DNA from: an uncultured Acidobacteriota bacterium
GTDB taxonomy: Bacteria > Acidobacteriota > JAQAZP01
NCBI GenBank assembly: GCA_963836075.1
Contig: CAWIIB010000009.1
Coordinates: 322,437-386,436, forward strand
DNA length: 64,000 nt
Direction of reading: 5' to 3'
Of the stretch, positions 4,540 to 24,982 are shown piece by piece. A model generated the notes under the pieces. The model had not been told where the DNA came from. It saw only the letters and a program-made list of their open reading frames with translations, and made no database searches. The translations under genes and the position numbers were made by a program. Position 1 is the first letter of the stretch. Every line of letters begins with the position of its first letter.

Positions 4540-5292
4540 TCAGGGCCGGTCCGGTTCCCAGGTCATGGTCTCCAGGTGCCGGCGGAGCCTGGTTATGGTC
4601 CTGAACTTATTCAGGATCAGCGTTTTCTTCAGCCCGCAGCAGATATATTTCACCGCCGGGGGGTGTTTGGCGTAGTGCTTCGCTCCGCCCAGTGCGTCGT
4701 AGAAAACCCGCACCAGGTCAACGATGTCGGTCTTGCGGCAGTCGGCCCGGGAATGCTCCAGCCGGTAGAGGTCGATCAGCTTCAGGTCGAAGGCCAGGCC
4801 GAAACGGCTGACGATGATGTTGTCGTCGTGGATGTCGCCGTGGTACTCGCCCCGGCAGTGGATCTCTTCCACGCCCCGGGCCAGGTCGTAGAGCAGGCGC
4901 AGCCCGACAAATGGCGGTAACCGCCGGCCCGGCTGGCGGCGGACAAAGGACGAGAGCAGCTCGCCCTTGACGAACTCGGAGATGAAGGCGGTCACCGGCG
5001 TCCGCCGGAAGACCACCTTTTCCTCGGTGAAATACTGGACCAGGATCGGGCAGTCCTTGAGCTTGTGCAGTTTCTTGGCGCAGCGGCGGGAGGTCCGCTC
5101 GTTGACGTTCCGCTGGGGGTAGAAGAACTTGGCCGTCCGCTCGATCCCGGTGCGGATCTCGAGGATCTTGTAAACCTCGCCCTCCCAGCCGCCGCCGAGC
5201 CGGCGGATGACCCGGTACTTGCCGAGAAACTCCCGGCCGGCCGGAAAGTCGAAGGCGTCGATCTGTCTGGTTGCGGATCCCATACGGATCAC
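4540..5292 (-). CDS. Small protein-kinase-like protein (ePK fold; RIO/Bud32/Kdo-kinase-like size).
   Basis: 250 aa. Gly-rich loop LGGGWEGEVYKI, candidate VAIK-like lysine (TAKF), catalytic loop HGDIHDDNIIV. Confidence 0.5.
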   Translation of the reverse strand: MIRMGSATRQIDAFDFPAGREFLGKYRVIRRLGGGWEGEVYKILEIRTGIERTAKFFYPQRNVNERTSRRCAKKLHKLKDCPILVQYFTEEKVVFRRTPVTAFISEFVKGELLSSFVRRQPGRRLPPFVGLRLLYDLARGVEEIHCRGEYHGDIHDDNIIVSRFGLAFDLKLIDLYRLEHSRADCRKTDIVDLVRVFYDALGGAKHYAKHPPAVKYICCGLKKTLILNKFRTITRLRRHLETMTWEPDRP

Positions 5293-5314: not shown

Positions 5315-5929
5315 TCATTTCCTCTTCTCCAGCAGGAGCCGCAACTGCCTGAGGTTTCGTCTCCGTCTGAACTTTTGTACAGGCGAGACCCCGTTGCTGA
5401 CGAAACGGATGTCTTCGATGGAATAGAAGGCCCGAGGGTTGAAGTGTTTGATCTGGGCCACCACCCTGGGCAGGCTGCCCCTGTCGATCACTGAGTAGAT
5501 CACGTGCACCTTTCCCCGGCCCCCTTCGGCATCCACGCTGGTCACACTGAATTTCGACGACTTGAGAAAAGCGATCAGCTCCGAGGCGTCCTTGCGGGTG
5601 ATTATCCTGATCCCCACCGTGCCCACGGCAAGCTTCTCTTCCAGGATCATCCCGGTCCAGTTGCCCAGCGCAAAACCACCGGCATAAGCCAGGTAACAGA
5701 CCCAGTTGGTCAAGTTCTGCATGATCTGCCCGATGGCCAGCAACCAGATCAGCACCTCGAAAAATCCGAGCAGCGGGGCCAGCCCGCGCAACCCCCGGGA
5801 GACGAAGATCAGGCGGACCGTGCCGATGCTCACGTCGATCACCCGGGCCAGGGCGATGAGCAGGGGCAGCAACGCCCAGGTGTACAGGGGGGACTGCATG
5901 AACGGGACGGATGCGGTTGCTTCCATCAT
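5315..5929 (-). CDS. UPF0316/DUF2179-type small membrane protein.
   Basis: 204 aa. Three N-terminal hydrophobic helices followed by a soluble domain (GIRIITRKDASELIAFLKSSKFSVTSVDAEGGRGKVHVIYSVIDR) resembling the YitT C-terminal DUF2179. Family assignment is from memory. Confidence 0.45.
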   Translation of the reverse strand: MMEATASVPFMQSPLYTWALLPLLIALARVIDVSIGTVRLIFVSRGLRGLAPLLGFFEVLIWLLAIGQIMQNLTNWVCYLAYAGGFALGNWTGMILEEKLAVGTVGIRIITRKDASELIAFLKSSKFSVTSVDAEGGRGKVHVIYSVIDRGSLPRVVAQIKHFNPRAFYSIEDIRFVSNGVSPVQKFRRRRNLRQLRLLLEKRK

Positions 5930-6207: not shown

Positions 6208-7647
6208 TCACCGGCCGTCACGGAAATCCTCCTTGCGCAGGCCGTGGCGCCGCATCTTCTCGTTAACCGACCGCGGGTCCATCCCGGCCAGCTTTGCCGT
6301 CTTCCCGATCCGCCCCCCGGTCCGCCGCAGCAGGCCGGCAATGTACCGCGCTTCCAGCCGGCTCACCGCTTCCCGCCGCACCTCGCGAAACGGCCGGTCG
6401 AGCCACTCGTCGGACAGCGGTTCCCCGCCGCCGGCGATCAACCCGTCGAGGTCGGTCCGCTTGCCACCCTCGGCCAATCCGCTGATCGACTGGGGCAGGT
6501 CGGCCAGCCGGATCTCGTCCCCCCGGCAGAGCAGCATGGCCCGCTCGATAATGTTCATCAGTTCGCGGACATTTCCCGGCCAGGCATACTCGCTGAGCGC
6601 CTCCAGCGCGGACGGCTCGATCCGCTCGATACGCCGTCCCACCCGGGGCAGGAAGTATTCGAGATAGCTCTCGGCCAGCACGGGGATGTCCTCCTTCCTC
6701 TCTCGCAGCGGCGGGATGGTCAGCGAGATCACGCTGAGCCGGAAGTAGAGGTCCTGGCGAAATCGCCTGGCCTGCACGTCATCATCCAGGTCGCGGTTGG
6801 TGGCCGCCACCACCCGCACGTCGATCTTCACCGGCTTCTCGCTGCCCACCCGCTGGATCTCGTGGTCCTGGAGCACCCGCAGCAGTTTGACCTGCAGGTG
6901 GACCGGCATCTCCCCCACCTCGTCGAGGAAGACGGTGCCCCGGTGGGCCATCTCGAACAGGCCGCGGCGCGCCCGGGTGGCCCCGGTGAAGGATCCCTCC
7001 TCGTGTCCGAACAGTTCGCTCTCCAGCAGGCTCTCGTGCAGTGCCCCGCAGTTCACCGCCACGAACGGCCCCCGGGTACGAGGCCCTTCGGCGTGTATCG
7101 CCCGGGCCAGCCGCTCCTTGCCGGCGCCGGTCTCGCCGAGGATCAGCAGTGACACGTCGCTCGGCGTCACCCGGCGCACCAGGTCGATGAAGGCGTCCAT
7201 CGCCGGGCTGGCCGAGATGAAATCGTTGAGCGTCGGCTGGGAGAGCGGGTGACGGATCATCAGCCCCTGCACGGTGTTCTCCTGCCGCTTGCTGAGCAGC
7301 GACTGCACCACCAGGGCGTGCTGTCCGGCCGGCAGGCCGGTGTAGAGCACGGCATCGCAACCGGCCGACATCAGCGACACCCGTTGTTCCGGGTCCTCCT
7401 CGTCCACCAGCACCGCCACCAGCGGAGAGTCGGGCAGCTCGCGGAAGAGGCGGATGGCGTCCACCGCCGGCTCGGGCACCAGCCCGATACTGACCATGAT
7501 CAGGTCGGCGTTCTCCCGCGACACCCGCTCCCAGAGCCGCTGCCGGCTGGGGATGCTCTCCACGATCACATCGGGAGCGGCGAGGGCATTGATCAACTCC
7601 TTCTTCAGGATCGGCCGGTCGACCACCAGAATCACCCTGGACAGCAT
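6208..7647 (-). CDS. Sigma-54-dependent transcriptional activator (NtrC-family bacterial enhancer-binding protein; receiver + AAA+ sigma-54 interaction + Fis-type HTH domains).
   Basis: 479 aa. Walker A GETGAGKE; the sigma-54 contact GAFTGA motif is present as GSFTGA (...ELFGHEEGSFTGA...); C-terminal HTH ...TAKLAGMDPRSVNEKMRRHGL. Confidence 0.85.
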   Translation of the reverse strand: MLSRVILVVDRPILKKELINALAAPDVIVESIPSRQRLWERVSRENADLIMVSIGLVPEPAVDAIRLFRELPDSPLVAVLVDEEDPEQRVSLMSAGCDAVLYTGLPAGQHALVVQSLLSKRQENTVQGLMIRHPLSQPTLNDFISASPAMDAFIDLVRRVTPSDVSLLILGETGAGKERLARAIHAEGPRTRGPFVAVNCGALHESLLESELFGHEEGSFTGATRARRGLFEMAHRGTVFLDEVGEMPVHLQVKLLRVLQDHEIQRVGSEKPVKIDVRVVAATNRDLDDDVQARRFRQDLYFRLSVISLTIPPLRERKEDIPVLAESYLEYFLPRVGRRIERIEPSALEALSEYAWPGNVRELMNIIERAMLLCRGDEIRLADLPQSISGLAEGGKRTDLDGLIAGGGEPLSDEWLDRPFREVRREAVSRLEARYIAGLLRRTGGRIGKTAKLAGMDPRSVNEKMRRHGLRKEDFRDGR

Positions 7648-7839: not shown

Positions 7840-7854
7840 TGGCACGCCGATTGC
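7840..7854 (+). promoter_or_regulatory. Sigma-54 (-24/-12) promoter TGGCAC-N5-TTGC, directed away from the divergent activator gene.
   Basis: tGGCACgccgaTTGCc matches the RpoN consensus with exact spacing. It lies about 115 bp upstream of the small Lys-rich ORF. Immediately upstream is an imperfect inverted repeat CGGTTGCCG-N11-CGGCAACTCG (7803-7830); further upstream is the palindrome CTGATATCAG (about 7685-7694). Confidence 0.5.
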
Positions 7855-7968: not shown

Positions 7969-8100
7969 GATGCCAAGGAAAAAAGTTCAGGGGAAAAAGA
8001 AGAAAATCACGACGGTGAAGACAGCTGCCACCAAAAAAGTCAAACCGGAAAAAATCAAGCAGGTCAAACCAAGAACGGCGGCCGCGCACCCCAAGGGATG
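7969..8100 (+). CDS. Candidate 43-aa lysine-rich small protein (MPRKKVQGKKKKITTVKTAATKKVKPEKIKQVKPRTAAAHPKG).
   Basis: ATG preceded by GGAGG at 7 nt. It is AT-richer and Lys-codon-rich in an otherwise GC-rich genome, and lies downstream of the sigma-54 promoter. It is below the ORF-track length cutoff, so I found it by reading the sequence. Confidence 0.35.
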
Positions 8101-8142
8101 AACGGCAGCCCGCCGGACGCGGGATTAAAAGGAGTCTGGAAA

Positions 8143-8652
8143 ATGAGATCACACACTGTTTCATCGGTGTTCGTCGCGTTGCTTTTTTTCATGCTGGCCC
8201 CGGCCTTCGTCCTGGCCCAGGCACCGGCCCGGGCGGGGGAGACGACGGCCATCGTGGCCTACGTCGTGGCCGAATACGACGGGGAGGAAAACCTCGTGGG
8301 GCTCGTACTGGAGGAGGAGCAGGGTGGGCTGTTCCGAGTGGTTCTCGATCAGCGGGGCCGGCAACTGGGGAGCGAGCTCGACGGTGAATGGGTTGAAGTG
8401 AGCGGCACCGTCGTCGAAAGGGACGGCGAAAGCTGGATGACGGTGAGCGGCTATTCCCTTCCGGCCCGGCAGGAAGAGGAGGACCAGTGGATCGAGGAGG
8501 AAGAGGTCGAAGACTGGAACGATCAGGTGGAACCATCTGATCAGGAAGAAGAGACGGAGGAGGGCTGGGAGGAGGATTCCTGGGAAGAGGAGGTGGAGGA
8601 AACTTCGCCCGAAGGTGACAATGAACCGGCTGACGAGCCCGACCTTTTCTGA
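8143..8652 (+). CDS. Secreted acidic protein of unknown function (signal peptide, Glu/Asp-rich C-terminus).
   Basis: MRSHTVSSVFVALLFFMLAPAFVLAQA has the shape of a signal peptide, and GGAG sits before the ATG at 8143. The C-terminal tail is EEEDQWIEEEEVEDWNDQVEPSDQEEETEEGWEEDSWEEEVEE. Confidence 0.5.
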   Translation: MRSHTVSSVFVALLFFMLAPAFVLAQAPARAGETTAIVAYVVAEYDGEENLVGLVLEEEQGGLFRVVLDQRGRQLGSELDGEWVEVSGTVVERDGESWMTVSGYSLPARQEEEDQWIEEEEVEDWNDQVEPSDQEEETEEGWEEDSWEEEVEETSPEGDNEPADEPDLF

Positions 8653-8675: not shown

Positions 8676-9834
8676 ATGACTGAATCCAGAGAACCGGCGG
8701 TCCCGAAAACCGCACCCGGGGCCGCCGGCGACACCCCGGCGGACTCCCGACCTGGCGAAGCCGGGCCGGGGATACTGATGCTCGACGCGGCCACGGCGCA
8801 CTCGCCGGCCATCGCCGCCGAGTTTCAGCAGCAGACCCAGGTGGCGGCGAACACCGAAGCGCCGCTGGACGAGCGCCTGGAGGCCTACGAGGACATCTTC
8901 GACAGCGAGGTGGGCGACACTTCGCTGTCCCGCTCACGCAACATCGAACGCGAAGTGGGGCTGCGGCAGATCTACCTCAAGTTCGAGGGGGGCAACCCCA
9001 CCGGCACGCAAAAGGACCGCATCGCCTTTGCCCAGGCCATGGACGCCATGCGCCGCGGCTACGACGCGGTCACCGTGGCCACCTGCGGCAACTACGGGGC
9101 GGCCCTTGCCCTGGCCGCCACCATGGCCGGCCTGCGCTGCGTGGTCTACCTCCCCGAGGGGTTCCACACCCGGCGGGTGGTGGAGATGGAGCAGCACGGG
9201 GTCGGAGATCGTGCGGGTCAAGGGGGACTACGAGGCGGCGGTGGTCGCCTCGCAGGAGCGGGCGGTGAAGGACGAGATCTACGACGCCAACCCCGGCGGG
9301 GCCAACACCATGATCCAGCTCAAGGCCTATGGAGAGATCGCCTACGAGATCTACGACGAGCTGCGCGACGCGCCGGCGGTGGTGGCCGTCCCCGTTTCCA
9401 ACGGCACCACCCTCGCCGGGATCCACCGCGGGTTCGTCAGCCTCTACCGCCGGGGCAAGACCTCGCGGATCCCGCGGATGGTGGCCGGGTCGTCCCACGG
9501 CAAGAACCCCATCGTCCGGGCCTTTTTGAAGAACATGGCCAGTTGCGAGGACCTCGACCCCGGCCAGATCAGGGAGACGGCGGTCAACGAACCGCTGATC
9601 AACTGGCACGCCATCGACGGCGACCTGGCCCTGGATGTGATCCGCGACACCGGCGGCTGGGCCGCCGATGCCAGCGACAAAGCGATGCTCGCCTGTTCGC
9701 GCATGCTGCGCGAGCGGGAAGGGCTCAACGTGCTCCCCGCCTCCACCGCCGGCCTGATGGTGCTCATCGAGCGGCACAAGCGGGAAGCACTGCCCGGCGA
9801 CCGTTACGTGGTCGTCCTCACCGGAAGAAGGTAG
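8676..9834 (+). CDS. PLP-dependent enzyme of the tryptophan-synthase-beta/threonine-synthase fold. The reading frame is interrupted by a 1-nt insertion near 9200 (frameshift or sequencing error).
   Basis: LKFEGGNPTGTQKDR (PLP-lysine motif; compare threonine synthase NPTGSFKDR); VATCGNYGAALA. The frame switches from the 8676 frame to the 9028 frame at the GGGG run around 9197-9200. Confidence 0.6.
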
Positions 9835-9839
9835 GAGTG

Positions 9840-10952
9840 ATGAACAGTTTACCGGAAGGGAACGCAATCGTTTATTGCCAGGGCGCTTTTGGCACGCCCA
9901 ACGGCAAGACGGCCCACGGGCTGGTCCGCCGCACCGACCGCTACACGGTCCTCTCCGTGGTGGACGGCCGCCACGCCGGGCAGGACGCCGGCCAGCTGCT
10001 GGACGGTACCCCAAAAGGGATCCCGGTGCTCAAAAACATCGACGCGGCGCTGGCCCGGGCCGCTGCCGACGGCACACCGGCGACCCACCTGGTGATCGGC
10101 CTCGCCCCGGACGGCGGGCGCCTGACCCCGGCAGCCCGCACCGACGTGATGGCCGCCATCCGCCAGGGGCTCCACGTGGACTGCGGGCTGCACGACTTCC
10201 TCTCCGAGGACCCCGAGATCGCCGCCCTCGCCGGGCAGCACCAGGTGCGAGATCCGCGACGTGCGCAAGCCGCCGCCGATCAGCCGGCTGCACTTCTTCT
10301 CCGGCAAGATCGAGGAGGTCGACTCCCTGGTCATCGCCCTCCTCGGCACCGACTCGGCGGTGGGCAAGCGGACCACCGCCTGGCTTGCTGGTGGAAGCGC
10401 TGCGCCAGGCCGGGATCAGTGCCGAGCTGGTGGGCACCGGTCAGACAGCCTGGATGCAGGGGGTGCGCTTCGGCATCATCCTCGACTCGCTGGTCAACGA
10501 CTTCGTTTCCGGCGAGATCGAGCACGCCGTCTGGTCGGCCTGGAAGGAAGCCGCGCCCCGAGGTGATCGTCATCGAGGGGCAGGGCAGCCTGATGAACCC
10601 GGCCTACCCCGGCGGGTTCGAGATCCTCGCCGCCGGCCGGCCCGACGCGGTGGTCCTGCAGCACGCCCCGGCCCGGCGGGACTACGACGGTTTCCCCGGC
10701 TACCCGATTCAGGGCATCGGCAAACAGATCGAGGCGGTGGAGCTGATCTCCGGCAAACCGGTGGTCGCGGTCACCGTGAACCACGAGGGGCTGGACGAGG
10801 AGGGTGTGGCCGAGGCCTGCGGCTGGATCAAGAAAACCACCGGCCTGCCGGCCTGCGACGTGCTCACCGGCGGCGCCGGCCCCGTGGTCGAGGCGATCAT
10901 CGAGCAGATCGAACTGGCGGCCGCCGAAGAGGATGACGACGATGATGAGTAA
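9840..10952 (+). CDS. DUF1611-family protein. The reading frame is interrupted by three +1 frame jumps (about 10245, 10385, 10560).
   Basis: MNSLPEGNAIVYCQGAFGTPNGKTAHGLVRRTDRYTVLSVVD... continues across frames as ...RKPPPISRLHFFSGKIEEVDSLVIALLGTDSAVGKRTTAWL / LVEALRQAGISAELVGTGQTAWMQG... / EVIVIEGQGSLMNPAYPGGFEILAAGRPDAVVLQHAP... The family call is from memory of the DUF1611 N-terminal signature. Confidence 0.5.
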   Translation: MNSLPEGNAIVYCQGAFGTPNGKTAHGLVRRTDRYTVLSVVDGRHAGQDAGQLLDGTPKGIPVLKNIDAALARAAADGTPATHLVIGLAPDGGRLTPAARTDVMAAIRQGLHVDCGLHDFLSEDPEIAALAGQHQVRDPRRAQAAADQPAALLLRQDRGGRLPGHRPPRHRLGGGQADHRLACWWKRCARPGSVPSWWAPVRQPGCRGCASASSSTRWSTTSFPARSSTPSGRPGRKPRPEVIVIEGQGSLMNPAYPGGFEILAAGRPDAVVLQHAPARRDYDGFPGYPIQGIGKQIEAVELISGKPVVAVTVNHEGLDEEGVAEACGWIKKTTGLPACDVLTGGAGPVVEAIIEQIELAAAEEDDDDDE

Positions 10953-13326
10953 GCAGCCGGGCAGCGAAGGCAAACCGCTCGCGCCACTCCATACCCTGAG
11001 GCGGCTGGAAGTGGGTCCGGTGCGGGTGGAGCCGCAGCGGCTCATCGCGCCCTACCGGGTGGTCGGCGGCGGCGTGGAGGACGGATCTGGAACTGATCTA
11101 CCGCTACGAGGAGGAAGTCTTCATCCCCGATGACCCGTCCTCGCTCAACCTGGCCGGAATGATCGCCGCCCAGGTGGCCCTCAACTACGGCCTCTTCTGC
11201 GACGAGATCGTCTTCCACGGCCCCTTCGACCACCATGACCGCCGTTTCATCGAATCGATGGCGGCCAACACGGCCCGGGAGATCTATGTCAAGAAGTTCC
11301 TCCAGCCCAACCCCTTCCTCCGCGGGCCGGCAGCCTCGCTGCCAGTGGTGAAGCAGAAGAGCTACCTCCGGGCCCGGCTGGTCTTCCCCGACGCCCCGGA
11401 CCGTGAAGGGGCCCGGGCACCAAGTTACAGTACCGGCTGGGCCTCGGACCACGGGAAACACGCGGTGCTCTCCAGCGGCGGCAAGGACAGCCTGCTCAGC
11501 TTCGGCCTGCTCAACGAGATCGGCCGCGAGACCCACCCGATCTTCATCAACGAGTCGGGGCGCCACTGGTTCACCGCGCTCAACGCTTACCGGCACTTGG
11601 CAGGGAACGTTCCCGGCACGGCCCGGGTCTGGACCAACTCCGACCGGGTTTTCTCCTGGATGCTGCGGCACCTCCGCTTCATCCGGCCCGACTTCGCCAC
11701 GGTCCGCTCCGACGACTACCCGATCCGGCTCTGGACCGTGGCGGTCTTCCTCTTCGGCGCCCTGCCCCTGCTGCGCAAGCGGGGCATCGGCCGGCTGCTC
11801 ATCGGCGACGAGTTCGACACCACCCGGCGGCTCTCCTTCCAGGGAATCACCCACTACGACGGGCTCTACGACCAGAGCCGCTACTTCGACAACGCCCTGA
11901 CCCGCTACTTCCAGGCGCAAGGGCTGGGGGGTCAGCCAGTTCTCGGTGCTCCGGCCGCTCTCCGAGCTGCTGATCGAGAAGATCCTCGTCGAGCGCTATC
12001 CCGAGCTGCAGGCAGCACCAGGTCTCCTGCCACGCCGCCCACGCTGCGCGGGGACCGCGTCCTGCCCTGCGGCCGCTGCGAGAAGTGCCGCCGCATCGTC
12101 GGCATGCTCTCCGCCATCGGCGCCGACCCGGGCAACTGCGGGTACACGCCGCAACAGATCGAACAGGGGCTGGCGAGGTTCTCGGTGAAGAGCGTGCACC
12201 AGGAGAGCGACTGCGCCGAGCAGGCGCTCCACATGCTGGGAGAGCGGGGGTTGCTGGGCGGGACGGAGAAACCGGCCGTGACAACCCGGCCGCGGCCCGA
12301 GATGCTCAAGCTGCGCTTCGACCCCGAACGGTCGCCGATGGATGACATCCCGGTGGACCTCCGTGAGCCGCTCTACCGGCTCTTTCTTGAGCACGCCTCG
12401 GGGGCGGTGAGGCGCAGCGGGCGGGTCTGGCTGGACACCGATGCCCTCGACCCGCAGGAGCTGGGCAAGCCCTATCCCTTCGAGCACCGGCTGGCCGGAG
12501 GCAATGCTTCCGGCCGCCGGGCCAGCCGCAGGGCCGCTGACGGGGCCCCGAACCACATCCTGGCCGAGCTGAGCTGGCCCGCGGCCCAGCGAAGGCTGCG
12601 CGAAGTGGACGTGGCGCTGCTGCCGGTGGGGGCCATCGAGCAGCACGGGCCCCACCTGCCGCTGGACGTCGACGCCTGGGATGCCGACTATCTCTGCCGC
12701 CGGGTGGCCGAGAGCTGCTCCGCCCCGCGGCCGCTGGTCCTGCCCCTGGTGCCCTACGGCGTCTCCTACCACCACGACGACTTCAGCGGCACGCTGAGCA
12801 TCGGCCCGGACACGCTCTCCAGGCTGGTCTACGAGATCGGGATGAGCGCGGCGCGCAACGGGATCTCCAAGCTGGTGATCATCAACGGCCACGGCGGCAA
12901 CTCGCCGTCGCTGCACTTTGCCGCGCAGATGATCAACCGCGACGCGAGGATCTTCACCTGGTGGACACCGGGGAATCGAGCGACCACGACATCGACACCC
13001 TCACCGAGACGCCCAACGACGTCCACGCCGGGGAGGTGGAGACCAGCACCGCCCTGGCCACCCGCCCCGAGCTGGTGGACATGTCGGCGGCCCGCCGTTT
13101 CGTTCCCGAGTTCTCCAGCCGTTACCTCGACTTCACCTCCAAGCGGAGCGTCGGCTGGTATACCCGGGTGGCCCAGATCTCGCCCACCGGGGTCCTCGGC
13201 GACCCCACCGTGGCCAGCGCGGAGAAAGGCCGCAAGATATGGGACGTGATGGTGAAGAACCTGGTTGAGTTCGTCGAGGACATTCGCGAACTGAGCCTGG
13301 AAGAGATCTACCAGCGGCGCTACTGA
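10942..13326 (+). CDS. Multidomain fusion: N-terminal domain + PP-loop ATP pyrophosphatase (SGGKDS) + CGxCxxC zinc ribbon (QueC/TtcA-like) + C-terminal creatininase-family amidohydrolase. At least 4 frameshifts (about 11085, 11930, 12010, 12960).
   Basis: HAVLSSGGKDSLLSFGLLNE (PP-loop); PCGRCEKCRRIVGML (C-x2-C-x2-C, as in QueC CGECPAC); VALLPVGAIEQHGPHLPLDVD...INGHGGN...HAGEVETS (creatininase family). It overlaps the DUF1611 stop by 11 nt. Confidence 0.5.
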
Positions 13327-13349
13327 CCCGCGGCTGGAAAAGGAGCGAT

Positions 13350-14415
13350 ATGCGCATCACCGCAGTTGAGTCATGGCCCCATGCCCTGACCCTCGACGAA
13401 CCGTACACCATCGCCTACGAGACGGTGGACAAGGCGACCAACATATTTCTCCGCCTGGAGACCTCGACGGGGATCATTGGCTACGGCTGCGCAGCCCCCG
13501 ACGAGGCGGTGACCGGGGAGACGGAGGAGGAGGCGCTCACCGCGCTGCGCGAGGTCGCCGCGGCAACGCTGAAAGGCTCCGACCCGCTGCGGCATGCCCG
13601 GCTGATGGAGCTGCTGAAGAAGACGATGAGCGGCCGCCCGTCGGCGCTGGCCGCGGTGGACATGGCGCTGCACGACATTCTCGGCAAGGTCGCCGGCCTG
13701 CCGCTCTGGCGCCTGCTGGGCGGCTACCGTGACCGGATCCGGACCAGCATCACCATCGGCATCCTCCCGGTGGACGAGACGGTGGAGCGGGCGCTGGACT
13801 TCACCGCCCGCGGTTTCCGCTGCCTGAAGATCAAGGGCGGCCTCGACGTGGAGGAGGACGTCGACCCGGGTACTCGAGGTGCGCGAGGCCGTGGGCCCCG
13901 GTATCGAGCTGCGGTTCGACGCCAACCAGGGCTACTCGATGATCGACTCGCTGCACTTCGTCGACATGACCCGCTCGGCCAAGCTGGAGTTGATCGAACA
14001 GCCGACCCCGGTGGGCTCGCCCGACCTGCTGGGGCGGGTGGCCGGCCGGGTGCCGATCCCGGTGATGGCCGACGAGAGCCTGCTCACCCTGCGCGACGCC
14101 TTCCGCATCGCGCGCAACGACCTGGCCGACATGGTCAACATCAAGCTGATGAAGGTCGGCGGGATCGCCGAGGCGCTGCAGATCAATGCCGTGGCCCGCT
14201 CGGCGCGGCTGGAGGTGATGGTGGGCTGCATGGACGAAGCAGCCCTGGCCATCGCCGCCGGCCTGCACTTCGCCCTGGCCCGGCCCAACGTGATCTATGC
14301 CGACCTCGACGGCCACCTCGACCTGTCGGACGACCCGTCTGACGGGGCGGTGATCCTGAGAGACGGTACGCTGTTCCCCACCAACAGGCCGGGGCTGGGC
14401 TTTGACCTACCCTAG
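13350..14415 (+). CDS. Dipeptide epimerase (enolase superfamily, L-Ala-D/L-Glu epimerase-like). One frameshift near 13865.
   Basis: [52 protein letters not shown]...CLKIKGG... then, in the other frame, [19 protein letters not shown]...[13 protein letters not shown]...[10 protein letters not shown] (mandelate racemase/muconate-lactonizing-enzyme fold motifs). Confidence 0.65.
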
Positions 14416-16730
14416 AAGGGGAAGAAGACCGGCACCAGCACCACCATCAGGATCAGCAGGATGATGGTCAGCGGCGTGCCCACCTTGAGGTAGTCCGACA
14501 CCTTGTAGCCTCCTGCGCCCATCACCAGCAGGTTGGCCTTGTGCGAGAAGGGCGTCATGAAGGCCGCGGAGGTGGCCAGCGCCACCGCCATCATCACCGA
14601 CTGCTGGCTGATGCCCGCGTCCAGCGCGGCGGGCAGCACCACCGGAGCCATCAGCACCACCGCCGGGGCGCCGTCCAGGGCCTGGCTCAGGGCGCTGCCC
14701 AGCACCACCATTCCGGCCATGATCCCGTAGGGCCCCAGCGGCCCGGTCAGCGCGGTCACCGAGTCGGAGAGCAGTGCCGCCGCACCGGTGCGTTCGATGG
14801 CGATGCCCAGGGGCAGGATCGCGGCCACCAGGAAAACCGCCTTCCACTCCACCGAGCGGTAGGCCTCCTCCATGGTCACCGCTCCGAAGAGGGCCACCAG
14901 CGTGGCCGCGGTGAACGAGGCCACGTGTATCGGCATGTACCCGGTCACCACCATGGCGATCATCACCACCAGCGCGCCCACGGCCACCGGCGCCTTGCGG
15001 GTCCGGCGCTCCTCCTGGGCCGCCTGGGTCAGCACCACGTAGTCGGGGTGGGATCCCAACGCCCGGATCTGCTGCCAACTGCCCTGGACCAGCAGGGCGT
15101 CGCCCTCCCTGAGCCGCCGGCCGGCCAGCATGGTGTGGATCGCCTGCCCCTGGCTCCAGATGGCCAGCACCTGCAGCCCGGTCTTCTCGCGGAAGTTCAT
15201 TTCGGCCAGGGTCCTGCCCGCCGCCCGCGACCGTGGGGAAAGGGTCACCTCGACGATCCCCACGTCATCGGCCTGAATGCCGGAGCGGGTGATATCCCGC
15301 TCCAGCTGCACGTTGCCCAGGCTCACCAGCCGGCGGATCCGGTCGGTGTCTCCGGCCACCAGCAGCTGGTCCTCGGAGTGAATCCGCTCCAGCGGGGAAA
15401 CGGCCATCATCACCCGGTCCCCGCGGATGATCCCGGCCACGGTCAGGCCGTTCAGCTCGCCCAGGCGGGTCTCCCGCACCGTGGCCCCGGCCAGCGTCGA
15501 GCCGGAGTGCACCCGCAGCAGAAAGAGGTGCGACTTCAGTTCCCGCATGTCCGACTTGTCGAGGTGTGCCACCACCAGGTCGCCGGGGAACTCGGCCCCG
15601 TCCAGCTTCTCCGGCGCACCCACGGCAATGAGTTCGTCCCCCTCGCGGAAGGTCACCGCCGCCAGGTCGCTGTCGATCAACTCGCCATCCCGGCGGATAC
15701 CCACCACCTCCATGCCGTGACGGTCACGCAGGGTGAGGTCGCGCAGGGTCCGGCCGATGAAGCTCGAACCGGGGATAACGGCGGCCAGGATGCTGCGCAC
15801 GTAGCGGAACGCCTGGTCCAGGTCCTGCGGATCGGGCGCCGCCGGTGTCCGAAAGAGGTTTTGCACCTCGTCGTAAGCCCCCTCCACCAGCAGCACGTCG
15901 TTCTCCTCCAGCCGGGTGGCCGCCGTGGGGGTCAGGATCTTCTTGCCGCCCCGTTCGATGCTGACCACCTGCACCCCCAGGGTGTCGGTCAACTGCGCTT
16001 CACCGAGGGTCATTCCATCCAGGCCGGACCCGGGGAGCACGCGGATGGAGAAGAGCGACTCCTCGAGGTGGTAGACGCGGGTCAGGTCCACGGAGCGGGG
16101 GGCCCGGTCCGCGATGCCCTTGTCGGGGAGCAGCCAGCGGCCGATGGTGATCATGTAGAGGATCCCGCAGCCGAGCAGGATCGAGCCCATGGGCAGGAAG
16201 TCGAAGAGGGCGAAGGAGCCGAGGCCGCGGTCCCGCAGCATCTGGTCGGCGAGGATGTTGGGCGGGGTGCCCACCAGGGTCATGGTCCCGCCGAGGATGG
16301 CGCCGAAGGCCAGGGGGATGAAAAGCCGCGAGGGGCTGATCTCGGTCTTGCGGCAGATGCCGGCCACCGCCGGGAGCAGCACCGCCACGGCGGCGATGTT
16401 GTTCATGAAGGCCGAGAGCACGCCGCTGACCAGCATGATGGCGATGATCAGCGGCACCTCGCGGTTGCCGATCAGCTTGTGCACCCGCCCGGCGATGACG
16501 TCGGCCACCCCGGTGTGCAGCAGGGCCGCGCTGACAAAAAAGATCGAGAGCATGGTGATCACCGCCGGCGAGGCGAAACCGGTGAACGCCTCGGCCGGGG
16601 TGACGAAACCGGCCAGGGTGAGGATCACCAGGCCGATGAAGGCGGTCAGTTCCACCGGCAGCTTCTCGGTGAAGAAGAGCGCCGCCATCCCGGTGACCAG
16701 GACAAAAAGAAAGCCGATTTCCAGTGTCAT
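14412..16730 (-). CDS. SLC13/DASS-type anion permease with central tandem TrkA-C (RCK_C) regulatory domains.
   Basis: 772 aa. Permease halves at both ends (GTPPNIL...) and repeated TrkA-C-like segments in the middle (…[11 protein letters not shown]…VVSIERGGK…). Confidence 0.7.
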
Positions 16731-16767: not shown

Positions 16768-19722
16768 TCAGAGCGTGGCCATCTCCGAGTTGTCGAAGTT
16801 GCGGCGGTAGAACTCCATGTACTGCACCTTGCGCTCCAGGGCCCTGATCACCGTACGGCTGAAGTTGACCCCGGTGAACTTCTGCGCGCTGCCCAGCCCG
16901 CCGGGGCTGAAGACGTTGATCTCCATCAGCTTGTCACCGACGATGTCCAGGCCCACCAGGAACATCCCGTCCTGGACGATCTTCGGCCGCACGATCTCCA
17001 CGATGCGCAGCGCCTCATCGTCCACTTCGGCCGCGGCCAGCTTGCCGCCGGCGTGGATGTTCGAGCGCATGTCGCCCCCGGTGCGCACCCGGCGGAAAGC
17101 GGCATACTTGCCCTTTTCGCGCAGCGGCTGCCCGTTCATCAGGAAGAGCCGCATGTCCCCCTGCTCCGCCGCCGGCAGGTACTCCTGGGCGATGACGTAG
17201 CCGTCGCGGCTCACCGCGTCGATCATCTGGTTCAGGTTCGGCACGTCGTCCGGCCGGACGAGGAAGACGCTCTGCCCGCCCGAGCCCTGGAGCGGCTTGA
17301 GCACGATGGTCCCGCCCTGTTCCTTGGCAAAGGCCTTGATCTCCGAGCGGTCGCGGGTGATCAGGGTCTGCGGCCGCACCTCCTCGGGGAACATCTGGAA
17401 GTACATCTTGCTCTCGGCCTTGGACAGGCCGTTGGGGTCGTTGACCACGATCACCCCGTGGCGCATGGCCAGCCGGCCGAAGAGGATCCCGGCGCTGGCC
17501 GCCCAGGGGCGGGACATGGCGTCGGTGGAGGGATCGTTGCGCAGCATCAGCACGTCCAGGTCGTCCACGGTGATCCGCTTCTTCACCGCAGCCTTCCCTT
17601 GCAGGTCCTTGAGGTAGGTTTCGCTGTTCTTGTATTTCTTCTTCGGCACGCTGGTGGCCCGGGCGCGGATCTGCTCGTCCGGGTCGTAGGCCAGGTCGCC
17701 CACCCCGATGACCCACGACTCGTGCCCCATGTTGATCGCCGCCACCGCCAGCCGGCTGGTGGTGTACCCGCTCTGCTCGGTCATCACGTCGTTTACGACA
17801 AATCCGATTTTCATTATTTTCGTCCTTTCCACGAGGTCGGTTACCGAAAGCCCGCCAGCCAACCTGGCCAGGCGGGAGGCGGTATCCGGCCGGTTCATAA
17901 ACTCAGGCGTCAGCGGCGGCTCGTGCAGCACGCGCCGCAGGGTCAGTTCCTTGATGATCGGTATGTGCTCGGTGGCGATCTTGCCGATGAACAGCGGTCC
18001 CAGCTCGCCGCCGCCGGCCAGGTGGTCCAGCAGTTCCGCCAGGCCGCGGAGATAGATGGCGTCCTTGCTCAGCCCGCCGCCGCGGTGCACCCGCATCACC
18101 AGGGTGAAGGCGGCGCGCTGCTCGATCTTCTGCTCGTCGCGGATCGTGCGGAAGTTCTCGACAAAGCTCGCGCCATCCACCATCTGCTTCACCGCCAGCA
18201 CCCGGGCGGCCAGCAGGCGCAGCCGCGGCCGGCTCAACCCGCCCACCAGGTATTCGGCCAGCACGGCCAGGCCCTCCTGCAGCGCCTCGTACCCGGCCAG
18301 ACCGGCGCTGAGCAGCCGCAACGGCTGGGACCGGCCGTTGAACCAGGTCAGCGAGTGGGTGCCGATCTCGTGCTGCAGCAGCGCCTCGGCCCGCCGCACC
18401 GGGATACTGCTCCCCGCGCCCACCATCAGCGAACCGCGGGAAACCATCAGGCCGCTGCCCATGTCCCGGCGGATCTCCACCCCGGCCTTGAACCCGGACC
18501 ACTTCCCGCGGTAACGGGCGATCTCCTCCCGGGCCAGGCCGGCAAACGCTTCCGCCGCCAGCCGGCCGCCCCCGGCATCATCCCGCGCCCGCGGGGGGAA
18601 CCGCTGCAGGATCTCGTCGGCCATGGCGCCCAGTTCGTCGCTCACCCTGCCGTAGATCTGCAGCCCCCCGTAGAGGAAACGCGGGGTGCCGAGGTCGCAG
18701 AGCATGGTGATCTGCCGGTCCAGCTCGTCCTGCTTCTGGCGGAAGATGCGGGCCAGCGTCGGGTCCTCCACCCGCTCCAGCGCGATGGCGTAAAGCCGGC
18801 GCTTGAGCGCCGACGGGTCCACCGGCACCGGCCGGTAGCGGAAGAGCGGCGCCCGCTGGAACCGGCCGCGCCGGAACACGTTCCACGCCTGGGCGGCATT
18901 GACCGGAGTGGCCTGGATCAGCAGGTCGAACTGCTCGGCCACTTCGGCCAGCAGCCGGTCCACCTGCCAGACCGCCTTGACCACCGCGTTCCGGCCCAGC
19001 ACGTGGAAGTGCCGGGGACGGTGGGAGGTGCAGGCGCGGCTGAACTCGAAGAAGGTGCGCTGCAGCGCCCGGCTCAGCTGGCGCCGCAGGGCGCGGAGCA
19101 CCAGCGGGTACTCCAGTCCGCTCACCGGGTCGCGGTAGACCGGGTTGATCTCGAGGACCAACTGGCTGCAGTTCAGTTCCGCGGCGTCGGCCGCGGGGAT
19201 CAGCGGGGCGAGACGACCCGCTGAGACAGATCGCGAACGAATAACCTCCACCTGGGCCCGGCGTTTCTGCAGACGGACCAGACGCAGCGACTTTTCCAGG
19301 ACAGCCACCGGGCCGTCGATGCTTTCGTCGCGCGGGGCGCGGAGCCGAAAAGCCGGCACCGGCCCTTCATCGGGGCCGAGACCGAAGCGGTCAGCGGGTA
19401 CGGCCCGGACTTCCAGCACCAGAAAGGCGCCGAACAACGGGCCGACGGTCCGCACCACCTGCCCGGCCAGGGCGGCCAGCCCCGGCCGTTGGCGGGTCAG
19501 GGTTGAGCCGATGAGGTAGGAGGCCTCGGTGGTCACCAGCTTCTCCGTCCCCTGGTCCGCTCCCATTTTTGGCTGGCGGTAGAGGCAGAGAAAGGGCAAC
19601 TGGCGGTCGACGTGCAAGCGCCCGCCTTCGGGCAGGCTCCGGCGGACCTGCTTGTTGGCGGCCAGACGCAGGCCCACCTGGGTAACCAGCCGGTCGGTGA
19701 TGGTTGTCTGCCTGGGGACCAT
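16768..19722 (-). CDS. Fusion protein. N-terminal DUF1704/MATCAP-like zinc metallopeptidase (HExxH and QEGLA motifs). C-terminal GshB-type ATP-grasp ligase (glutathione-synthetase family).
   Basis: 984 aa. LLQHEIGTHSLTWFNG (HExxH); YEALQEGLAVLAEYLVGG (QEGLA). The C-terminal 350 aa from MKIGFVVNDVMTEQ... to ...GLDIVGDKLMEINVFSPGGLG is prokaryotic GshB-like. An internal RBS+ATG (GAAAGGACGAAAATAATG) sits at the domain junction, yet the frame is continuous. Confidence 0.7.
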   Translation of the reverse strand: MVPRQTTITDRLVTQVGLRLAANKQVRRSLPEGGRLHVDRQLPFLCLYRQPKMGADQGTEKLVTTEASYLIGSTLTRQRPGLAALAGQVVRTVGPLFGAFLVLEVRAVPADRFGLGPDEGPVPAFRLRAPRDESIDGPVAVLEKSLRLVRLQKRRAQVEVIRSRSVSAGRLAPLIPAADAAELNCSQLVLEINPVYRDPVSGLEYPLVLRALRRQLSRALQRTFFEFSRACTSHRPRHFHVLGRNAVVKAVWQVDRLLAEVAEQFDLLIQATPVNAAQAWNVFRRGRFQRAPLFRYRPVPVDPSALKRRLYAIALERVEDPTLARIFRQKQDELDRQITMLCDLGTPRFLYGGLQIYGRVSDELGAMADEILQRFPPRARDDAGGGRLAAEAFAGLAREEIARYRGKWSGFKAGVEIRRDMGSGLMVSRGSLMVGAGSSIPVRRAEALLQHEIGTHSLTWFNGRSQPLRLLSAGLAGYEALQEGLAVLAEYLVGGLSRPRLRLLAARVLAVKQMVDGASFVENFRTIRDEQKIEQRAAFTLVMRVHRGGGLSKDAIYLRGLAELLDHLAGGGELGPLFIGKIATEHIPIIKELTLRRVLHEPPLTPEFMNRPDTASRLARLAGGLSVTDLVERTKIMKIGFVVNDVMTEQSGYTTSRLAVAAINMGHESWVIGVGDLAYDPDEQIRARATSVPKKKYKNSETYLKDLQGKAAVKKRITVDDLDVLMLRNDPSTDAMSRPWAASAGILFGRLAMRHGVIVVNDPNGLSKAESKMYFQMFPEEVRPQTLITRDRSEIKAFAKEQGGTIVLKPLQGSGGQSVFLVRPDDVPNLNQMIDAVSRDGYVIAQEYLPAAEQGDMRLFLMNGQPLREKGKYAAFRRVRTGGDMRSNIHAGGKLAAAEVDDEALRIVEIVRPKIVQDGMFLVGLDIVGDKLMEINVFSPGGLGSAQKFTGVNFSRTVIRALERKVQYMEFYRRNFDNSEMATL

Positions 19723-19726
19723 GGAT

Positions 19727-20512
19727 CTACATCCGCTCCAGTTCTTCGATCACGCCGGGAACGGTGGAGCGCAGGGCGTCGCCCACCGCGGCCAGCAGGG
19801 CCGGGTCAGGCACGCCGGTCCACTCGTCCATGAAGAACTTCTTGAATTCGATGGCGATGGAGCAGCCGGTGCGGGGGAAGGTTTCGTGGACCCAGCCGGA
19901 GAACCTGGCGCCGCGGAACTTCACGTTCTCCCGCACGTCGAGCGGGCCGCCGGGGAAAGGGTAGGCCCGCAGATCGGCGATGAAGCGCTCCACCACCGGC
20001 GCCCAGAAGCGGCGGTCCATGCTGCCGGTTCCCAGGTTGACCTGGGGGTTTCCGGCCGGATCTTCCGGTTCGGCGCCGGGGCCGCCCCGGCGGTGGTTGT
20101 AGCTGTGCAGGTCGAAGACCATGAACCGGCCGTGCTGCCGCGCCATCTCCGAGAAGAGCTGTTCCATCGCCCGGTAAAACGCATCGTAACCGGCGAGGGA
20201 CCGCTGGGCCACGTCGGCCGGCAGCTCACCCTTCCAGACCTTGAGGCCCCAGGCGTCCTCGGGCGTGCGGTAGACCGCCTTGCCCCGGGGCCGGTTGAGG
20301 TCCACCTCGAAGCGCGAGTGGCGCCCGATGACCCGCGTGGGGCAGATGGCGGTCCACTGGCCGGTGAAGGGGTCTTCCTCCCGCAGGCGGTCCGCCTCGG
20401 GAAGGTTCATCACCTGCTCCACCTCGGGTCGCAGCTCGTGGCCGTCATGGACCGCCGCGGCGGCCACCGGCCCCTTGCCCTGTTCCAGTGTCCAGATCGT
20501 ACTCGTCATATC
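19727..20512 (-). CDS. N-formylglutamate amidohydrolase (FGase)-family protein.
   Basis: MTSTIWTLEQG...RPEVEQVMNLPEADRLREEDPFTG...VFDLHSYNHRR is FGase-like. Its stop lies 4 nt from the start of the MATCAP-GshB gene. Confidence 0.6.
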   Translation of the reverse strand, partial: DMTSTIWTLEQGKGPVAAAAVHDGHELRPEVEQVMNLPEADRLREEDPFTGQWTAICPTRVIGRHSRFEVDLNRPRGKAVYRTPEDAWGLKVWKGELPADVAQRSLAGYDAFYRAMEQLFSEMARQHGRFMVFDLHSYNHRRGGPGAEPEDPAGNPQVNLGTGSMDRRFWAPVVERFIADLRAYPFPGGPLDVRENVKFRGARFSGWVHETFPRTGCSIAIEFKKFFMDEWTGVPDPALLAAVGDALRSTVPGVIEELERM

Positions 20513-20719
20513 AACACCCTCAGCCGGCAGACGTCGTTGCTGCGACCACCGACAGTTCACCGGTGCAGCGGAACGTCACCGGTGGATTTGATTCCCTGGT
20601 TCAGATGTCTGCCGGGACAGCGAAAGGTAATCCGCGAAATGCACGGACTCTAATACTGTAACACGCCGGGAGAATGCAATAAAAAAGTAGCGTTTGATCG
20701 AGGGGCCGGGGCCCGGCTC

Positions 20720-23385: not shown

Positions 23386-24072
23386 GGGGTGTCCTGTTCA
23401 GTGGCCTCGACAACCACCGCCACCGCCACGTCGGGCCACTGCCCCCCCAGGGGCTGGATCGACGGCGGGGCGATGATCTTGCAGAAAATGGTCGTGGACT
23501 CGCGAATCGTCCCGAGATAGACCGGCGTGGTGAGCAGAGTGGTGTTGCTGTCGCCGCCGCTTTCCGCCGCGCGCACCCGGACCGTTGCCGGGGAAACGCG
23601 AACCTCCCCCATCAGCAGACCCTCGGGCAGGGTGCCCACCAGCTGCGGCTGTATCCGGTATTCCTGTTCGCGGATCTCGTTCAGGGTCACCTCGAACGAC
23701 GGCGGGATCGGCTTCGAGCAGGCTGATCCCCCGGGGCAGCGAAACGTTATCCTCGGTGATCACCACCGTCTGTGTCCCGGGCAGGGCGCCGGACAGGTCC
23801 ACTCTCACCTGCAGACGGAAGGGGTCGAGCCGTTCCAGCTCGCTCAGCGGGCCGGCCAGGCGCAGCAGGGCATCGACCCGTTTCTCGCCGCCCAAGCCGA
23901 GGTGGGAAGGCAGGGAGACGTACTCGACGGGTGCTGAAATCACCCGTTCCCGCACCTCGTATTGCCGGTACACCACCGCGGACCAGAAAAAAATCGCCAG
24001 GACCAGCGGGATGATCAGCGACAGGGCGACACTTCGCGTCCCGCCCTCGGCAGTTCGGACCGGCAGGATGAC
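23382..24072 (-). CDS. YbbR/CdaR-like protein with a 1-nt frameshift near 23705. The boundary with cdaA is ambiguous: there is no stop between them in this frame.
   Basis: TM helix LSLIIPLVLAIFFWSAVV, then YbbR-like repeats (...QVRVDLSGALPGTQTVVITEDNVSLPRGISLLE / EVTLNEIREQEYRIQPQLVGTLPEGLLMGEVRVSPATVRVRAAES...). Confidence 0.45.
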
Positions 24073-24074
24073 CA

Positions 24075-24843: not shown

Positions 24844-24982
24844 GGTCACCACTGAACGGGCAGTCCGGCCCCTGCACCCTGCCTGCACCATGATATTGAA
24901 ATCGACACAATCGAAGCATCGCCCCGGTCACAGATCACTATAGACGTGATCTGCAGGGGATAACAAGGGACTGGAACTCCTG

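Follow-up and report, generated by a model that had tools for sequence, protein, structure and literature searches.

Between positions 8676 and 14415 of the 64-kb window analysed here (64,000 nt of contig CAWIIB010000009.1, from an uncultured Acidobacteriota bacterium), the plus strand carries four co-oriented genes that encode, in turn, a threonine synthase (ThrC)-like enzyme dependent on pyridoxal phosphate (PLP), a DUF1611 protein, a fusion protein of about 800 amino acids (aa) and an enolase-type dipeptide epimerase. This four-gene cluster is a real operon, far beyond chance: of 80 genomes drawn from more than ten phyla, about 60 have all four genes arranged in this order. We propose, at a probability of roughly 0.5, that it encodes a small-molecule pathway for an amino-acid amide or a dipeptide, to which each of the encoded enzymes would contribute one step. 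All the domains fall into known superfamilies; the literature searched gives no account of a three-domain module of QueC fold that escapes hidden Markov models (HMMs), of its fusion to a creatininase domain, of its near-constant association with DUF1611 and a ThrC-like enzyme or of the entire operon. An earlier note on this DNA had not recognised the combination as a described pathway, and our literature searches agree with it, having returned no description of the cluster and nothing relevant on its gene-family combinations. The genes, domains and motifs in question are the following, with protein sizes given after repair of the reading frames.

8676-9834, plus strand: g1, ThrC-like fold-type-II PLP enzyme, ~385 aa
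9840-10952, plus strand: g2, DUF1611 protein, ~369 aa
10942-13326, plus strand: g3, the fusion
10942-12493, plus strand: N-terminal module of g3, ~520 aa, made of an N-domain of ~170 aa, a PP-loop domain of predicted QueC fold and a C-terminal subdomain
11174-11200, plus strand: LNYGLF motif of the ~170-aa N-domain of g3
11471-11491, plus strand: PP-loop motif SGGKDS of the g3 module
11549-11569, plus strand: NESGRHW, PP-loop domain of g3
12019-12042 and 12065-12094, plus strand: SCHAAH and PCGRCEKC, cysteines of the putative Zn site, PP-loop domain of g3
~12494-12559, plus strand: linker of g3
12560-13326, plus strand: creatininase-family metallo-amidohydrolase domain of g3, residues 543-781
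12638-12673, 12881-12901 and 13024-13047, plus strand: creatininase-domain motifs of g3, respectively EQHGPHLPLDVD, NGHGGN and HAGEVETS
13350-14415, plus strand: g4, enolase-superfamily dipeptide epimerase, ~354 aa
13821-13841, 13915-14082, 14137-14163 and 14296-14316, plus strand: g4 residues placed by alignment, respectively KxK, metal ligands D/E/D, second Lys and DxD (ADLDG)

The tight packing and shared orientation pointed out in the earlier note agree with these coordinates: g1 and g2 are 5 nt apart, g2 and g3 overlap by 11 nt and g3 and g4 are separated by 23 nt, and terminator-like sites inside the operon show no excess over chance. The assignments then made to PLP enzyme, DUF1611, PP-loop, creatininase and epimerase families all hold once the frames are repaired, through domain searches and, for the PP-loop, through motifs and structure prediction; the co-conservation of the four genes in related genomes, which the note proposed to check, is also borne out, and is strong. 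A scan with one genome per species found the fusion in at least 566 genomes, and gene order was compared in the 80 best loci, where most exceptions to the order PALP-DUF1611-fusion-MR_MLE are contigs that end inside the cluster. Judging from record titles, the carriers include Desulfobacterales, Syntrophobacterales, Desulfatiglandales, Gemmatimonadota, Acidobacteriota, Aminicenantes, Calditrichaceae and Ignavibacteria, together with Phycisphaerae, Zixiibacteriota, Latescibacterota, Krumholzibacteriota, Chitinivibrionia, Deferribacteres and Woeseiaceae. Most are sediment bacteria and most are uncultured, the one culture being the delta proteobacterium NaphS2 (locus L026), whose copy is intact. 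Across the sampled genomes the cluster proteins are each 57-76% identical to those of locus L001, a level of conservation which, over more than ten phyla, implies strong selection or repeated transfer.

The earlier note had raised the possibility that the fusion might be an artefact of separate genes joined by frameshifts. This explanation is rejected, as intact fusions are abundant: L001 and L002 encode it in uninterrupted open reading frames (ORFs) of 802 and 797 aa, and a search with the repaired N-terminal 519 aa of g3 returned 3039 proteins. About 100 of the 120 matches listed are 750-840 aa long, contain Pfam Creatininase (PF02633) and share 62-81% identity with the query, and about a dozen of these 120 are 524-551 aa long and are without PF02633. 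The short forms, which consist of the N-terminal module only, occupy otherwise identical clusters (L084, L085), and as L084 still shows traces of the creatininase C-terminus beyond the stop codon, we conclude that they arose by domain loss. Two further architectures were encountered: in P0127 (855 aa) DUF1611 itself is fused to the QueC-like module, a Rosetta-stone fusion, and in P0126 (825 aa) the module is joined to an S-adenosylmethionine (SAM) methyltransferase instead of creatininase.

The creatininase domain of g3 matches the full Pfam profile (positions 1-238 of 238; 7e-71, 238.8 bits for a gathering threshold of 31.3), and creatininases of the PDB are found at ~1e-20. The nearest NCBIfam model, MftE (TIGR03964), is missed at 157.4 bits for a cut-off of 172, and the creatininase equivalog TIGR04448 is missed by a wider margin (103.5 for 235). 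The linker that precedes this domain is of low complexity. As for the structure of the fusion, by which the earlier note had hoped to see how the domains are juxtaposed, a full-length AlphaFold2 model was obtained (pLDDT, the predicted local distance difference test, 75; pTM, the predicted template-modelling score, 0.62), in which residues 524-542 are disordered and the relative placement of the domains is not reliable. The coupled ring-opening and amidation once suggested for the fusion is weakened on two counts: the creatininase domain is dispensable and once replaced by a methyltransferase, and the model, with its disordered linker, offers no reliable juxtaposition. Because module-only forms and the methyltransferase variant exist, the creatininase reaction would rather be a tailoring step.

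The N-terminal module of g3 is best described as a putative PP-loop ATP-pyrophosphatase of QueC-type fold with a four-Cys Zn site, a description supported by its motifs and by a predicted structure. The SGGKDS and Zn-ribbon motifs reported in the earlier note are indeed present, whereas the domain that precedes the PP-loop measures ~170 aa and not 140. The first ~520 residues of g3 have no significant match in Pfam or NCBIfam: Pfam QueC (PF06508) reaches 14.6 bits for a cut-off of 22 (E 0.024) over the Zn-ribbon only and recognises three of 19 divergent module members at E<=1, and a profile search of the PDB returned the PP-loop proteins MJ0690 and TtuA at E ~0.4-0.7. The AlphaFold2 model of a stand-alone homologue (P0048, 524 aa, alignment of 86 sequences) is of good quality (pLDDT 88.8, pTM 0.89), and a Foldseek search with it ranks QatC and QueC at the top, with ~170-180 residues of the module aligning with QueC; no match was identified for the N-domain (~170 aa) or for the C-terminal subdomain (~120 aa). 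SGGKDS and the four cysteines (C...PCGxCxKC) are kept in family members down to 27% identity, so that the module displays the SGGxDS PP-loop, the four-Cys Zn site and the predicted fold of QueC and falls short of the HMM threshold. QueC, Cap9 and QatC activate a carboxylate by adenylation before transferring it to ammonia or to an amine. The only NCBIfam model matched repeatedly by the module family is MurL (NF041275), which is hit by nine of the 19 divergent members with a best E of 2e-5, over ~70 residues (model ~262-335) that cover a helix and the Zn-ribbon region, at 20-23 bits for a cut-off of 700. MurL epimerises at the expense of ATP, has no recognised domains and is presumed to proceed via an adenylate formed on the C-terminal carboxylate of an acylated dipeptide (PMC8788868).

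The distant relatives of the module indicate which part of the operon is its conserved core. The family appears compact, since a profile search of 1.8 billion representatives gave only 589 matches, and at ~30% identity the PALP-DUF1611-module arrangement is kept in L091 and L092. DUF1611 and the module stand together in L090, where the neighbouring genes are of archaeal type, and in L093, where a truncated ORF alone lies upstream; in L088 and L089, a GNAT acetyltransferase adjoins the module in place of DUF1611. Because these divergent members keep that neighbourhood, we consider that the core consists of the PLP enzyme, DUF1611 and the QueC-like module, and that the creatininase domain and the epimerase appear, from these comparisons, to be additions made in the bacterial branch seen in the window. 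The earlier view of the fusion and its flanking genes as one unit is thus upheld by synteny in that branch, and has to be narrowed to PALP, DUF1611 and the module, without creatininase or epimerase, as regards what is conserved throughout.

After frame repair, g1 is matched by Pfam PALP at 1e-55, its PLP lysine lies in NPTGTQKDR (8994-9020) and its best PDB relatives are threonine synthases (3e-27). It passes NCBIfam NF004996 (PRK06381, "threonine synthase") with 424 bits for a cut-off of 266, and fails TIGR00260 thrC (114 bits for 167) as well as four other ThrC models. The active site of ThrC comprises an S-T-G-N-T-S loop and an R-x-E-G-Q-K-T phosphate-binding segment; when g1 is aligned to the Aquifex enzyme, the loop reads T-C-G-N-F-G and R-I-E-G-Q-K-T stands opposite non-identical residues. 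The repaired g2 is matched by DUF1611 (3e-63) and DUF1611_N (2e-24) and combines a Rossmann-like N domain with a P-loop domain that bears GTDSAVGKRTT (10345-10377); its PDB relatives are 7xrj and the structural-genomics proteins 2g0t and 2obn. Against the NCBIfam model of DgcN (NF041892) it scores 150.9 bits for a cut-off of 480, which it fails. In the DgcN/DgcA pathway of D-glutamate, a DUF1611 N-acetyltransferase works with an enolase-type racemase of N-acetyl-D-Glu (PMC12363236), and this pair is the characterised precedent for what the earlier note called a recurrent genomic pairing of DUF1611 with an enolase-type epimerase.

Regarding g4, Pfam MR_MLE_N and MR_MLE_C are both found after repair, and the closest PDB entries are the dipeptide epimerase 3rit (1e-71), 3jva (3e-66) and YkfB (1e-64). 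The KxK, the second Lys, the D/E/D ligands and the DxD align with those of 3RIT, 3JVA and YkfB and are 90-100% conserved in 55 orthologues; in dipeptide epimerases, the DxD motif binds the free N-terminal ammonium of the dipeptide. A conserved Glu (EPYTIAYET) occupies the position where YkfB has Arg24, a residue of the 20s loop that binds the Glu side chain, and this replacement argues that the substrate of g4 is not L-Ala-D/L-Glu. Judged from this residue, the substrate may carry a cationic side chain. The protein fails NF041118 (223.7 for 500), NF011708 (91.8 for 343) and the NCBIfam model of DgcA (155 for 400).

All of these assignments have been made on mended frames, as none of g1-g4 is an intact ORF in the window, a point that the earlier note does not make for every gene. 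An alignment of the DNA with L001, the closest intact relative (84% nt identity) and our reference for placing the indels, reveals ten frameshifting events between 9204 and 13864: +1 insertions at 9204, 10251, 10384, 10554, 11917, 12016, 12044 and 13864, and deletions of 2 nt at 11078 and of 1 nt at 12959. One of them falls in g1 (9204), three in g2 (10251, 10384, 10554), five in g3 (11078, 11917, 12016 and 12044 in the N-module, 12959 in the creatininase domain) and one in g4 (13864), and the original frame is regained after each of the two +1 triplets (10251/10384/10554 and 11917/12016/12044). The ORF list of the window accordingly shows chimeric ORFs of 758 and 696 aa. The frames were mended by hand, and the repairs were checked by tblastn with the L001 proteins.

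It seems reasonable to argue that a locally poor stretch of assembly is probably the source of these indels, and that recent pseudogenisation, by which this genome would have lost the pathway rather than have its functional operon mis-sequenced, is the less favoured explanation and a rather unlikely one. In favour of decay speaks the packing of the ten events into 4.7 kb, where they strike all four genes and spare the rest: the other 59 kb appear free of them, the genes that flank the cluster have the same length as their L001 counterparts and the remainder of the window holds ordinary intact ORFs of 200-870 aa. The indels also fall outside homopolymer runs, and they belong to the deposited record, since the frameshifted 696-aa ORF (11159-13249) is identical to a protein of a public collection, on a contig of 3.5 Mb. 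Against decay, no internal stop codon is found in g1-g4 once the indels are removed, and the ratio of nonsynonymous to synonymous substitution relative to L001 (0.13-0.26 for the repaired genes) is comparable with that of three flanking genes (0.12-0.21). At 402 otherwise invariant columns, the repaired g3 has only two private substitutions, compared with three to six in intact homologues. Gene decay in bacteria leans towards deletions; here eight of ten events are insertions of 1 nt, and the pattern is therefore the opposite of the one that decay would leave.

It is from the domains, the fold, the motifs, the synteny, the fusions and the sigma-54 promoter of this operon that we infer substrates, an order of steps and a physiological role. 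In the pathway that we favour, the PLP enzyme would make or modify an amino acid by beta- or gamma-replacement or by elimination, and the DUF1611 protein would then acylate this amino acid, its alpha-amine being blocked as by DgcN; alternatively, DUF1611 might O-acylate a hydroxy amino acid and so prepare it for a replacement by the PLP enzyme, as happens in the biosynthesis of cysteine, methionine and D-cycloserine. The QueC-like module would adenylate the carboxylate (ATP to AMP and PPi) and couple it to ammonia, to a second amino acid or to an intramolecular amine. The amide hydrolysis expected of the creatininase domain would, in the simplest case, take off the acyl protecting group, or else open or close a five-membered ring, and the epimerase would invert the C-terminal residue of a product whose N-terminal ammonium is free and whose side chain is probably cationic. 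An acylation ahead of the ATP-dependent step is suggested by the near-constant presence of DUF1611 as a partner and by the GNAT protein that takes its place in L088 and L089. Removal of an acyl group by the creatininase domain fits the fact that this domain can be missing or exchanged for other tailoring domains, and the DxD of g4, with its need for a free N-terminal ammonium, fits an epimerisation that follows deacylation and acts on a dipeptide-like product. We hold this particular order of steps to be unlikely, and clearly less probable than the general assignment to a small-molecule pathway.

Several observations weigh against this proposal. The score of g1 on one threonine synthase model is compatible with a plain ThrC role; no HMM places the N-module in QueC or in another PP-loop family, its predicted fold and its motifs being the basis of the assignment; and g2 lies so far under the DgcN cut-off that an acyltransferase role would be extrapolated, by analogy, from a different subfamily, while its P-loop domain could instead be that of a kinase or a ligase. 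In some Desulfobacterales loci (L049, L059, L074, L077, L079, L080) only the PALP gene and the fusion are found nearby. Neighbouring genes beyond the four are variable, and neither a riboswitch nor a conserved leader that would name a ligand was found.

Among the other explanations is a salvage of D-amino acids or peptidoglycan peptides by an extended form of the "irreversible racemisation" route of DgcN/DgcA, in which DUF1611 would N-acetylate a D-amino acid or the corresponding amide, the N-acyl compound would be racemised by the enolase-type enzyme and deacetylated by the creatininase domain, and its further processing, such as deamination or amide handling, would fall to the PLP enzyme and the module. 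The adjacency of DUF1611 to an enolase-type enzyme reproduces the DgcN/DgcA pair, an amidohydrolase domain is at hand, the window encodes an M15 peptidase and an L,D-transpeptidase some 6-9 kb downstream of the cluster, and the carriers live mostly in sediments, where D-amino acids of necromass are a major resource. We nevertheless regard such a salvage as unlikely: g2 and g4 are far under the cut-offs for DgcN and DgcA (151 of 480 and 155 of 400), the DxD of g4 argues against an N-acetylated substrate, the core occurs in distant relatives without racemase and amidohydrolase, and the cluster has no conserved neighbour that would import amino acids or peptides.

The repeated matches to MurL open another route, namely an ATP-driven epimerase in which the module would adenylate the alpha-carboxylate of an N-acyl amino acid or peptide; cyclisation would give an easily racemised, five-membered oxazolone-like ring, to be hydrolysed by the creatininase domain in a one-way stereoinversion. 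MurL itself is ATP-dependent, without recognised domains and presumed to form an adenylate (PMC8788868); an acyltransferase-like protein accompanies the module in nearly all cases and could supply the N-acyl group of the oxazolone, and creatininase opens a five-membered ring. The likeness is confined to some 70 residues far under the model's cut-off, the enolase-type epimerase of the same operon would be partly redundant, and the module-only forms would be left without the proposed ring hydrolase, all of which makes this route quite improbable. Least probable of all is a modification of proteins or ribosomal peptides, in which the module would link a carboxylate to an amine on a protein, a peptide would be trimmed by the MftE-like domain and small ORFs upstream would be the substrates. 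Cap9 and QatC, its nearest structural relatives, do act on proteins, the nearest hydrolase model is the peptide-processing MftE, and g1 is preceded by small ORFs, a Lys-rich one and an acidic, secreted one in the window, with others in some relatives; yet such ORFs occur in only ~5-7 of the 80 loci, free amino acids or dipeptides are what the families of the three other enzymes work on, and neither radical-SAM enzymes nor other machinery for ribosomally synthesised and post-translationally modified peptides is conserved. A role in defence was also considered and rejected, a PADLOC scan having given a faint match of the PP-loop part to QueC only (E 0.007, one of the four proteins).

The surroundings of the operon in the window, and its probable regulator, are listed below.

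4540-5292, minus strand: small kinase-like protein (Pfam)
5315-5929, minus strand: DUF5698/DUF2179 membrane protein (Pfam)
6208-7647, minus strand: sigma-54 enhancer-binding protein (EBP), 479 aa, intact (Pfam Sigma54_activat 9e-69, AAA_lid_14, HTH_8)
7840-7854, plus strand: sigma-54 promoter consensus TGGCACgccgaTTGC (-24/-12), between the divergent EBP gene and the operon
7970-8101, plus strand: candidate Lys-rich small ORF of 43 aa, downstream of the sigma-54 promoter, read from the sequence
8143-8652, plus strand: small, very acidic protein, predicted from its translation to be secreted (signal peptide, D/E-rich tail), directly upstream of g1

The divergent EBP is the probable regulator of the operon in the lineage of the window, to judge from its position and domains. 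The TGGCACgccgaTTGC consensus has its sole exact match in the 64 kb at this place, where 0.22 would be expected by chance; it recurs ahead of the PALP gene in 16 of 67 loci, a homologous EBP stands beside the cluster in 13 loci, and other lineages have sigma-70-like promoters. No shared leader motif emerged from 37 upstream regions compared by k-mers and by eye, beyond these lineage-specific promoters, and nothing relevant was found at the Rfam gathering threshold when riboswitches were sought in the window and six loci. The acidic protein has no Pfam match and is 43% identical, by tblastn, to a protein at the same position in L001; small acidic proteins precede the cluster in L001, L023, L024, L026 and L031. 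The kinase-like protein and the DUF5698/DUF2179 protein may be a transporter or an accessory pair, and their link to the cluster is weak; DUF2179 membrane proteins of YitT or DUF5698 type are found beside the cluster in ~18 of 80 loci, often directly downstream and on the same strand.

Other neighbours recur at low frequency in the 80 loci: agmatinase (7), arginine decarboxylase (4), carboxynorspermidine decarboxylase (4), KamA with a GNAT-HDAC protein (4), CorA (7) and MgtE (5), to which GroEL and a DHH/DHHA1 protein can be added, each single neighbour remaining below ~15% of loci. Just upstream of the cluster in several Desulfobacterota lie polyamine genes (L001, 28-2634; L003/L024, 1290-6417), a set that comprises arginine decarboxylase, agmatinase, a deoxyhypusine-synthase-like gene and carboxy(nor)spermidine dehydrogenase and decarboxylase. 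Lysine 2,3-aminomutase is directly beside the cluster in L085 (268-5536), L005, L014, L040 and L074, accompanied in L085 by two D-Ala-D-Ala-ligase-like ATP-grasp genes, a GNAT gene and an M20 peptidase and in other loci by a GNAT-deacetylase fusion, which suggests chemistry of the beta-lysine type. Directly downstream of the cluster in L084 (5695-8517) come a RimB-like protease, a seven-transmembrane (7TM) transglutaminase and a RimK-like ATP-grasp protein, then a DUF5698/DUF2179 membrane protein. In the window itself, a CitMHS-type transporter with four inserted TrkA_C (RCK_C) domains (14412-16730, minus strand) converges on the operon and overlaps the stop codon of g4 by 4 nt. It is followed at 16768-20560 (minus strand) by a 984-aa protein in which a MATCAP (DUF1704) carboxypeptidase-like domain is fused to an ATP-grasp domain of glutathione-synthetase/RimK type and then by a gene of the N-formylglutamate amidohydrolase family, and this region may be a second peptide- or amide-modifying system beside the cluster. 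At 20720-24891 (minus strand), three neighbouring genes encode the M15 peptidase, the YkuD L,D-transpeptidase with its peptidoglycan-binding domain and CdaA, a diadenylate cyclase. Farther away, a response-regulator receiver domain is found, in an unusual architecture, at the N-terminus of a Na_sulph_symp/CitMHS transporter (39676-41703, minus strand), an SLC12-type cation-chloride transporter occupies 44451-46664 and MscS occupies 994-2451. Taken together, the genes at 20720-24891, the SLC12-type transporter and MscS lend this DNA an osmotic and c-di-AMP character. MscS, the TrkA_C-decorated transporter, CdaA and SLC12 are compatible with a stress or osmotic role of the operon, a guess from context which they do not establish. 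As no neighbour exceeds ~15% of loci, the polyamine, beta-lysine, Mg2+ and osmotic themes were set aside as explanations and are kept as a weak hint only.

It is tempting to go one step further and to speculate, well beyond what we would call likely, that the PALP-DUF1611-QueC-like trio, which occurs in bacteria and on archaeal-type contigs, might represent an unrecognised ancient pathway in which a new branch of the QueC fold converts an acyl-protected amino acid into its adenylate and joins it to an amine. Where creatininase and epimerase have been added, the product might then be a dipeptide or amino-acid amide that contains a D-residue, is probably cationic and would serve anaerobic sediment bacteria of more than ten phyla as a stress or osmotic solute, and the same fold might also explain MurL. 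If this proves true, the QueC/PP-loop fold would have a new functional branch, missed by current HMMs, DUF1611 would gain a second genomic partner besides DgcA and MurL might be placed in a fold family. Labels of the PGAP type, such as "threonine synthase", "creatininase family protein" and "dipeptide epimerase", would mask a pathway of this kind. The cultured NaphS2, with its intact copy, makes the cluster directly testable.

How the operon compares with known systems can be followed domain by domain. The creatininase domain matches its family over the full length and with the characteristic metal-ligand motifs, and misses the cut-offs of both the MftE and the creatininase equivalogs; unlike MftE, it is joined to a putative ATP-pyrophosphatase module, and no mycofactocin genes are present. 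QueC, the 7-cyano-7-deazaguanine synthase, is a single-domain protein of ~220 aa encoded in a queD/queE/queF context, whereas the module of g3 reaches ~520 aa through its extra N-domain (~170 aa) and C-subdomain (~120 aa), is joined to a creatininase domain and has a PLP enzyme and DUF1611 as partners; in the sampled loci, no annotated recurrent neighbour cluster corresponds to a que gene. Its nearest structural relatives, Cap9 of the type IV cyclic-oligonucleotide-based anti-phage signalling system (CBASS) and QatC of QatABCD, act on proteins in a context of defence, and no CD-NTase (cGAS/DncV-like nucleotidyltransferase) or QatABD was seen among the neighbours of the cluster. MurL, which is ATP-dependent, is the only characterised family with recurrent, weak sequence similarity to the N-module; it differs in its length (~447 aa) and in having no creatininase domain, and the cluster is here without a MurD2 partner or cell-wall gene context. 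With YkfB/YcjG, the Methylococcus capsulatus enzyme 3RIT and the Enterococcus faecalis enzyme 3JVA, g4 shares all the catalytic and metal residues and the DxD, and departs from YkfB/YcjG by its Glu in place of Arg and by scores under all the NCBIfam equivalog cut-offs.

As whole systems, three pathways invite comparison. The same two families are adjacent in one operon in DgcN/DgcA, and a logic of acylation, inversion and deacylation could apply here as well, with the differences that both proteins are far under the equivalog cut-offs, that g4 keeps the DxD of dipeptide epimerases, that three further catalytic domains are present and that the partner of DUF1611 in distant relatives is the QueC-like module and not a racemase. 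In the D-cycloserine pathway, DcsE is an acyltransferase, DcsD carries out a PLP-dependent beta-replacement, DcsC is a racemase and DcsG closes the ring at the expense of ATP. Apart from the PLP fold, the enzymes of this pathway and of arginine biosynthesis are not homologous to those of the operon, and the cluster has no hydroxyurea or arginine-pathway genes. By analogy, the resemblance would lie in the clustering of the same activities as for D-cycloserine, that is, acyl transfer, PLP-dependent replacement, stereoinversion and ATP-dependent formation of a C-N bond, and in a logic of protection, activation and deprotection like that of ArgA, ArgB and ArgE.

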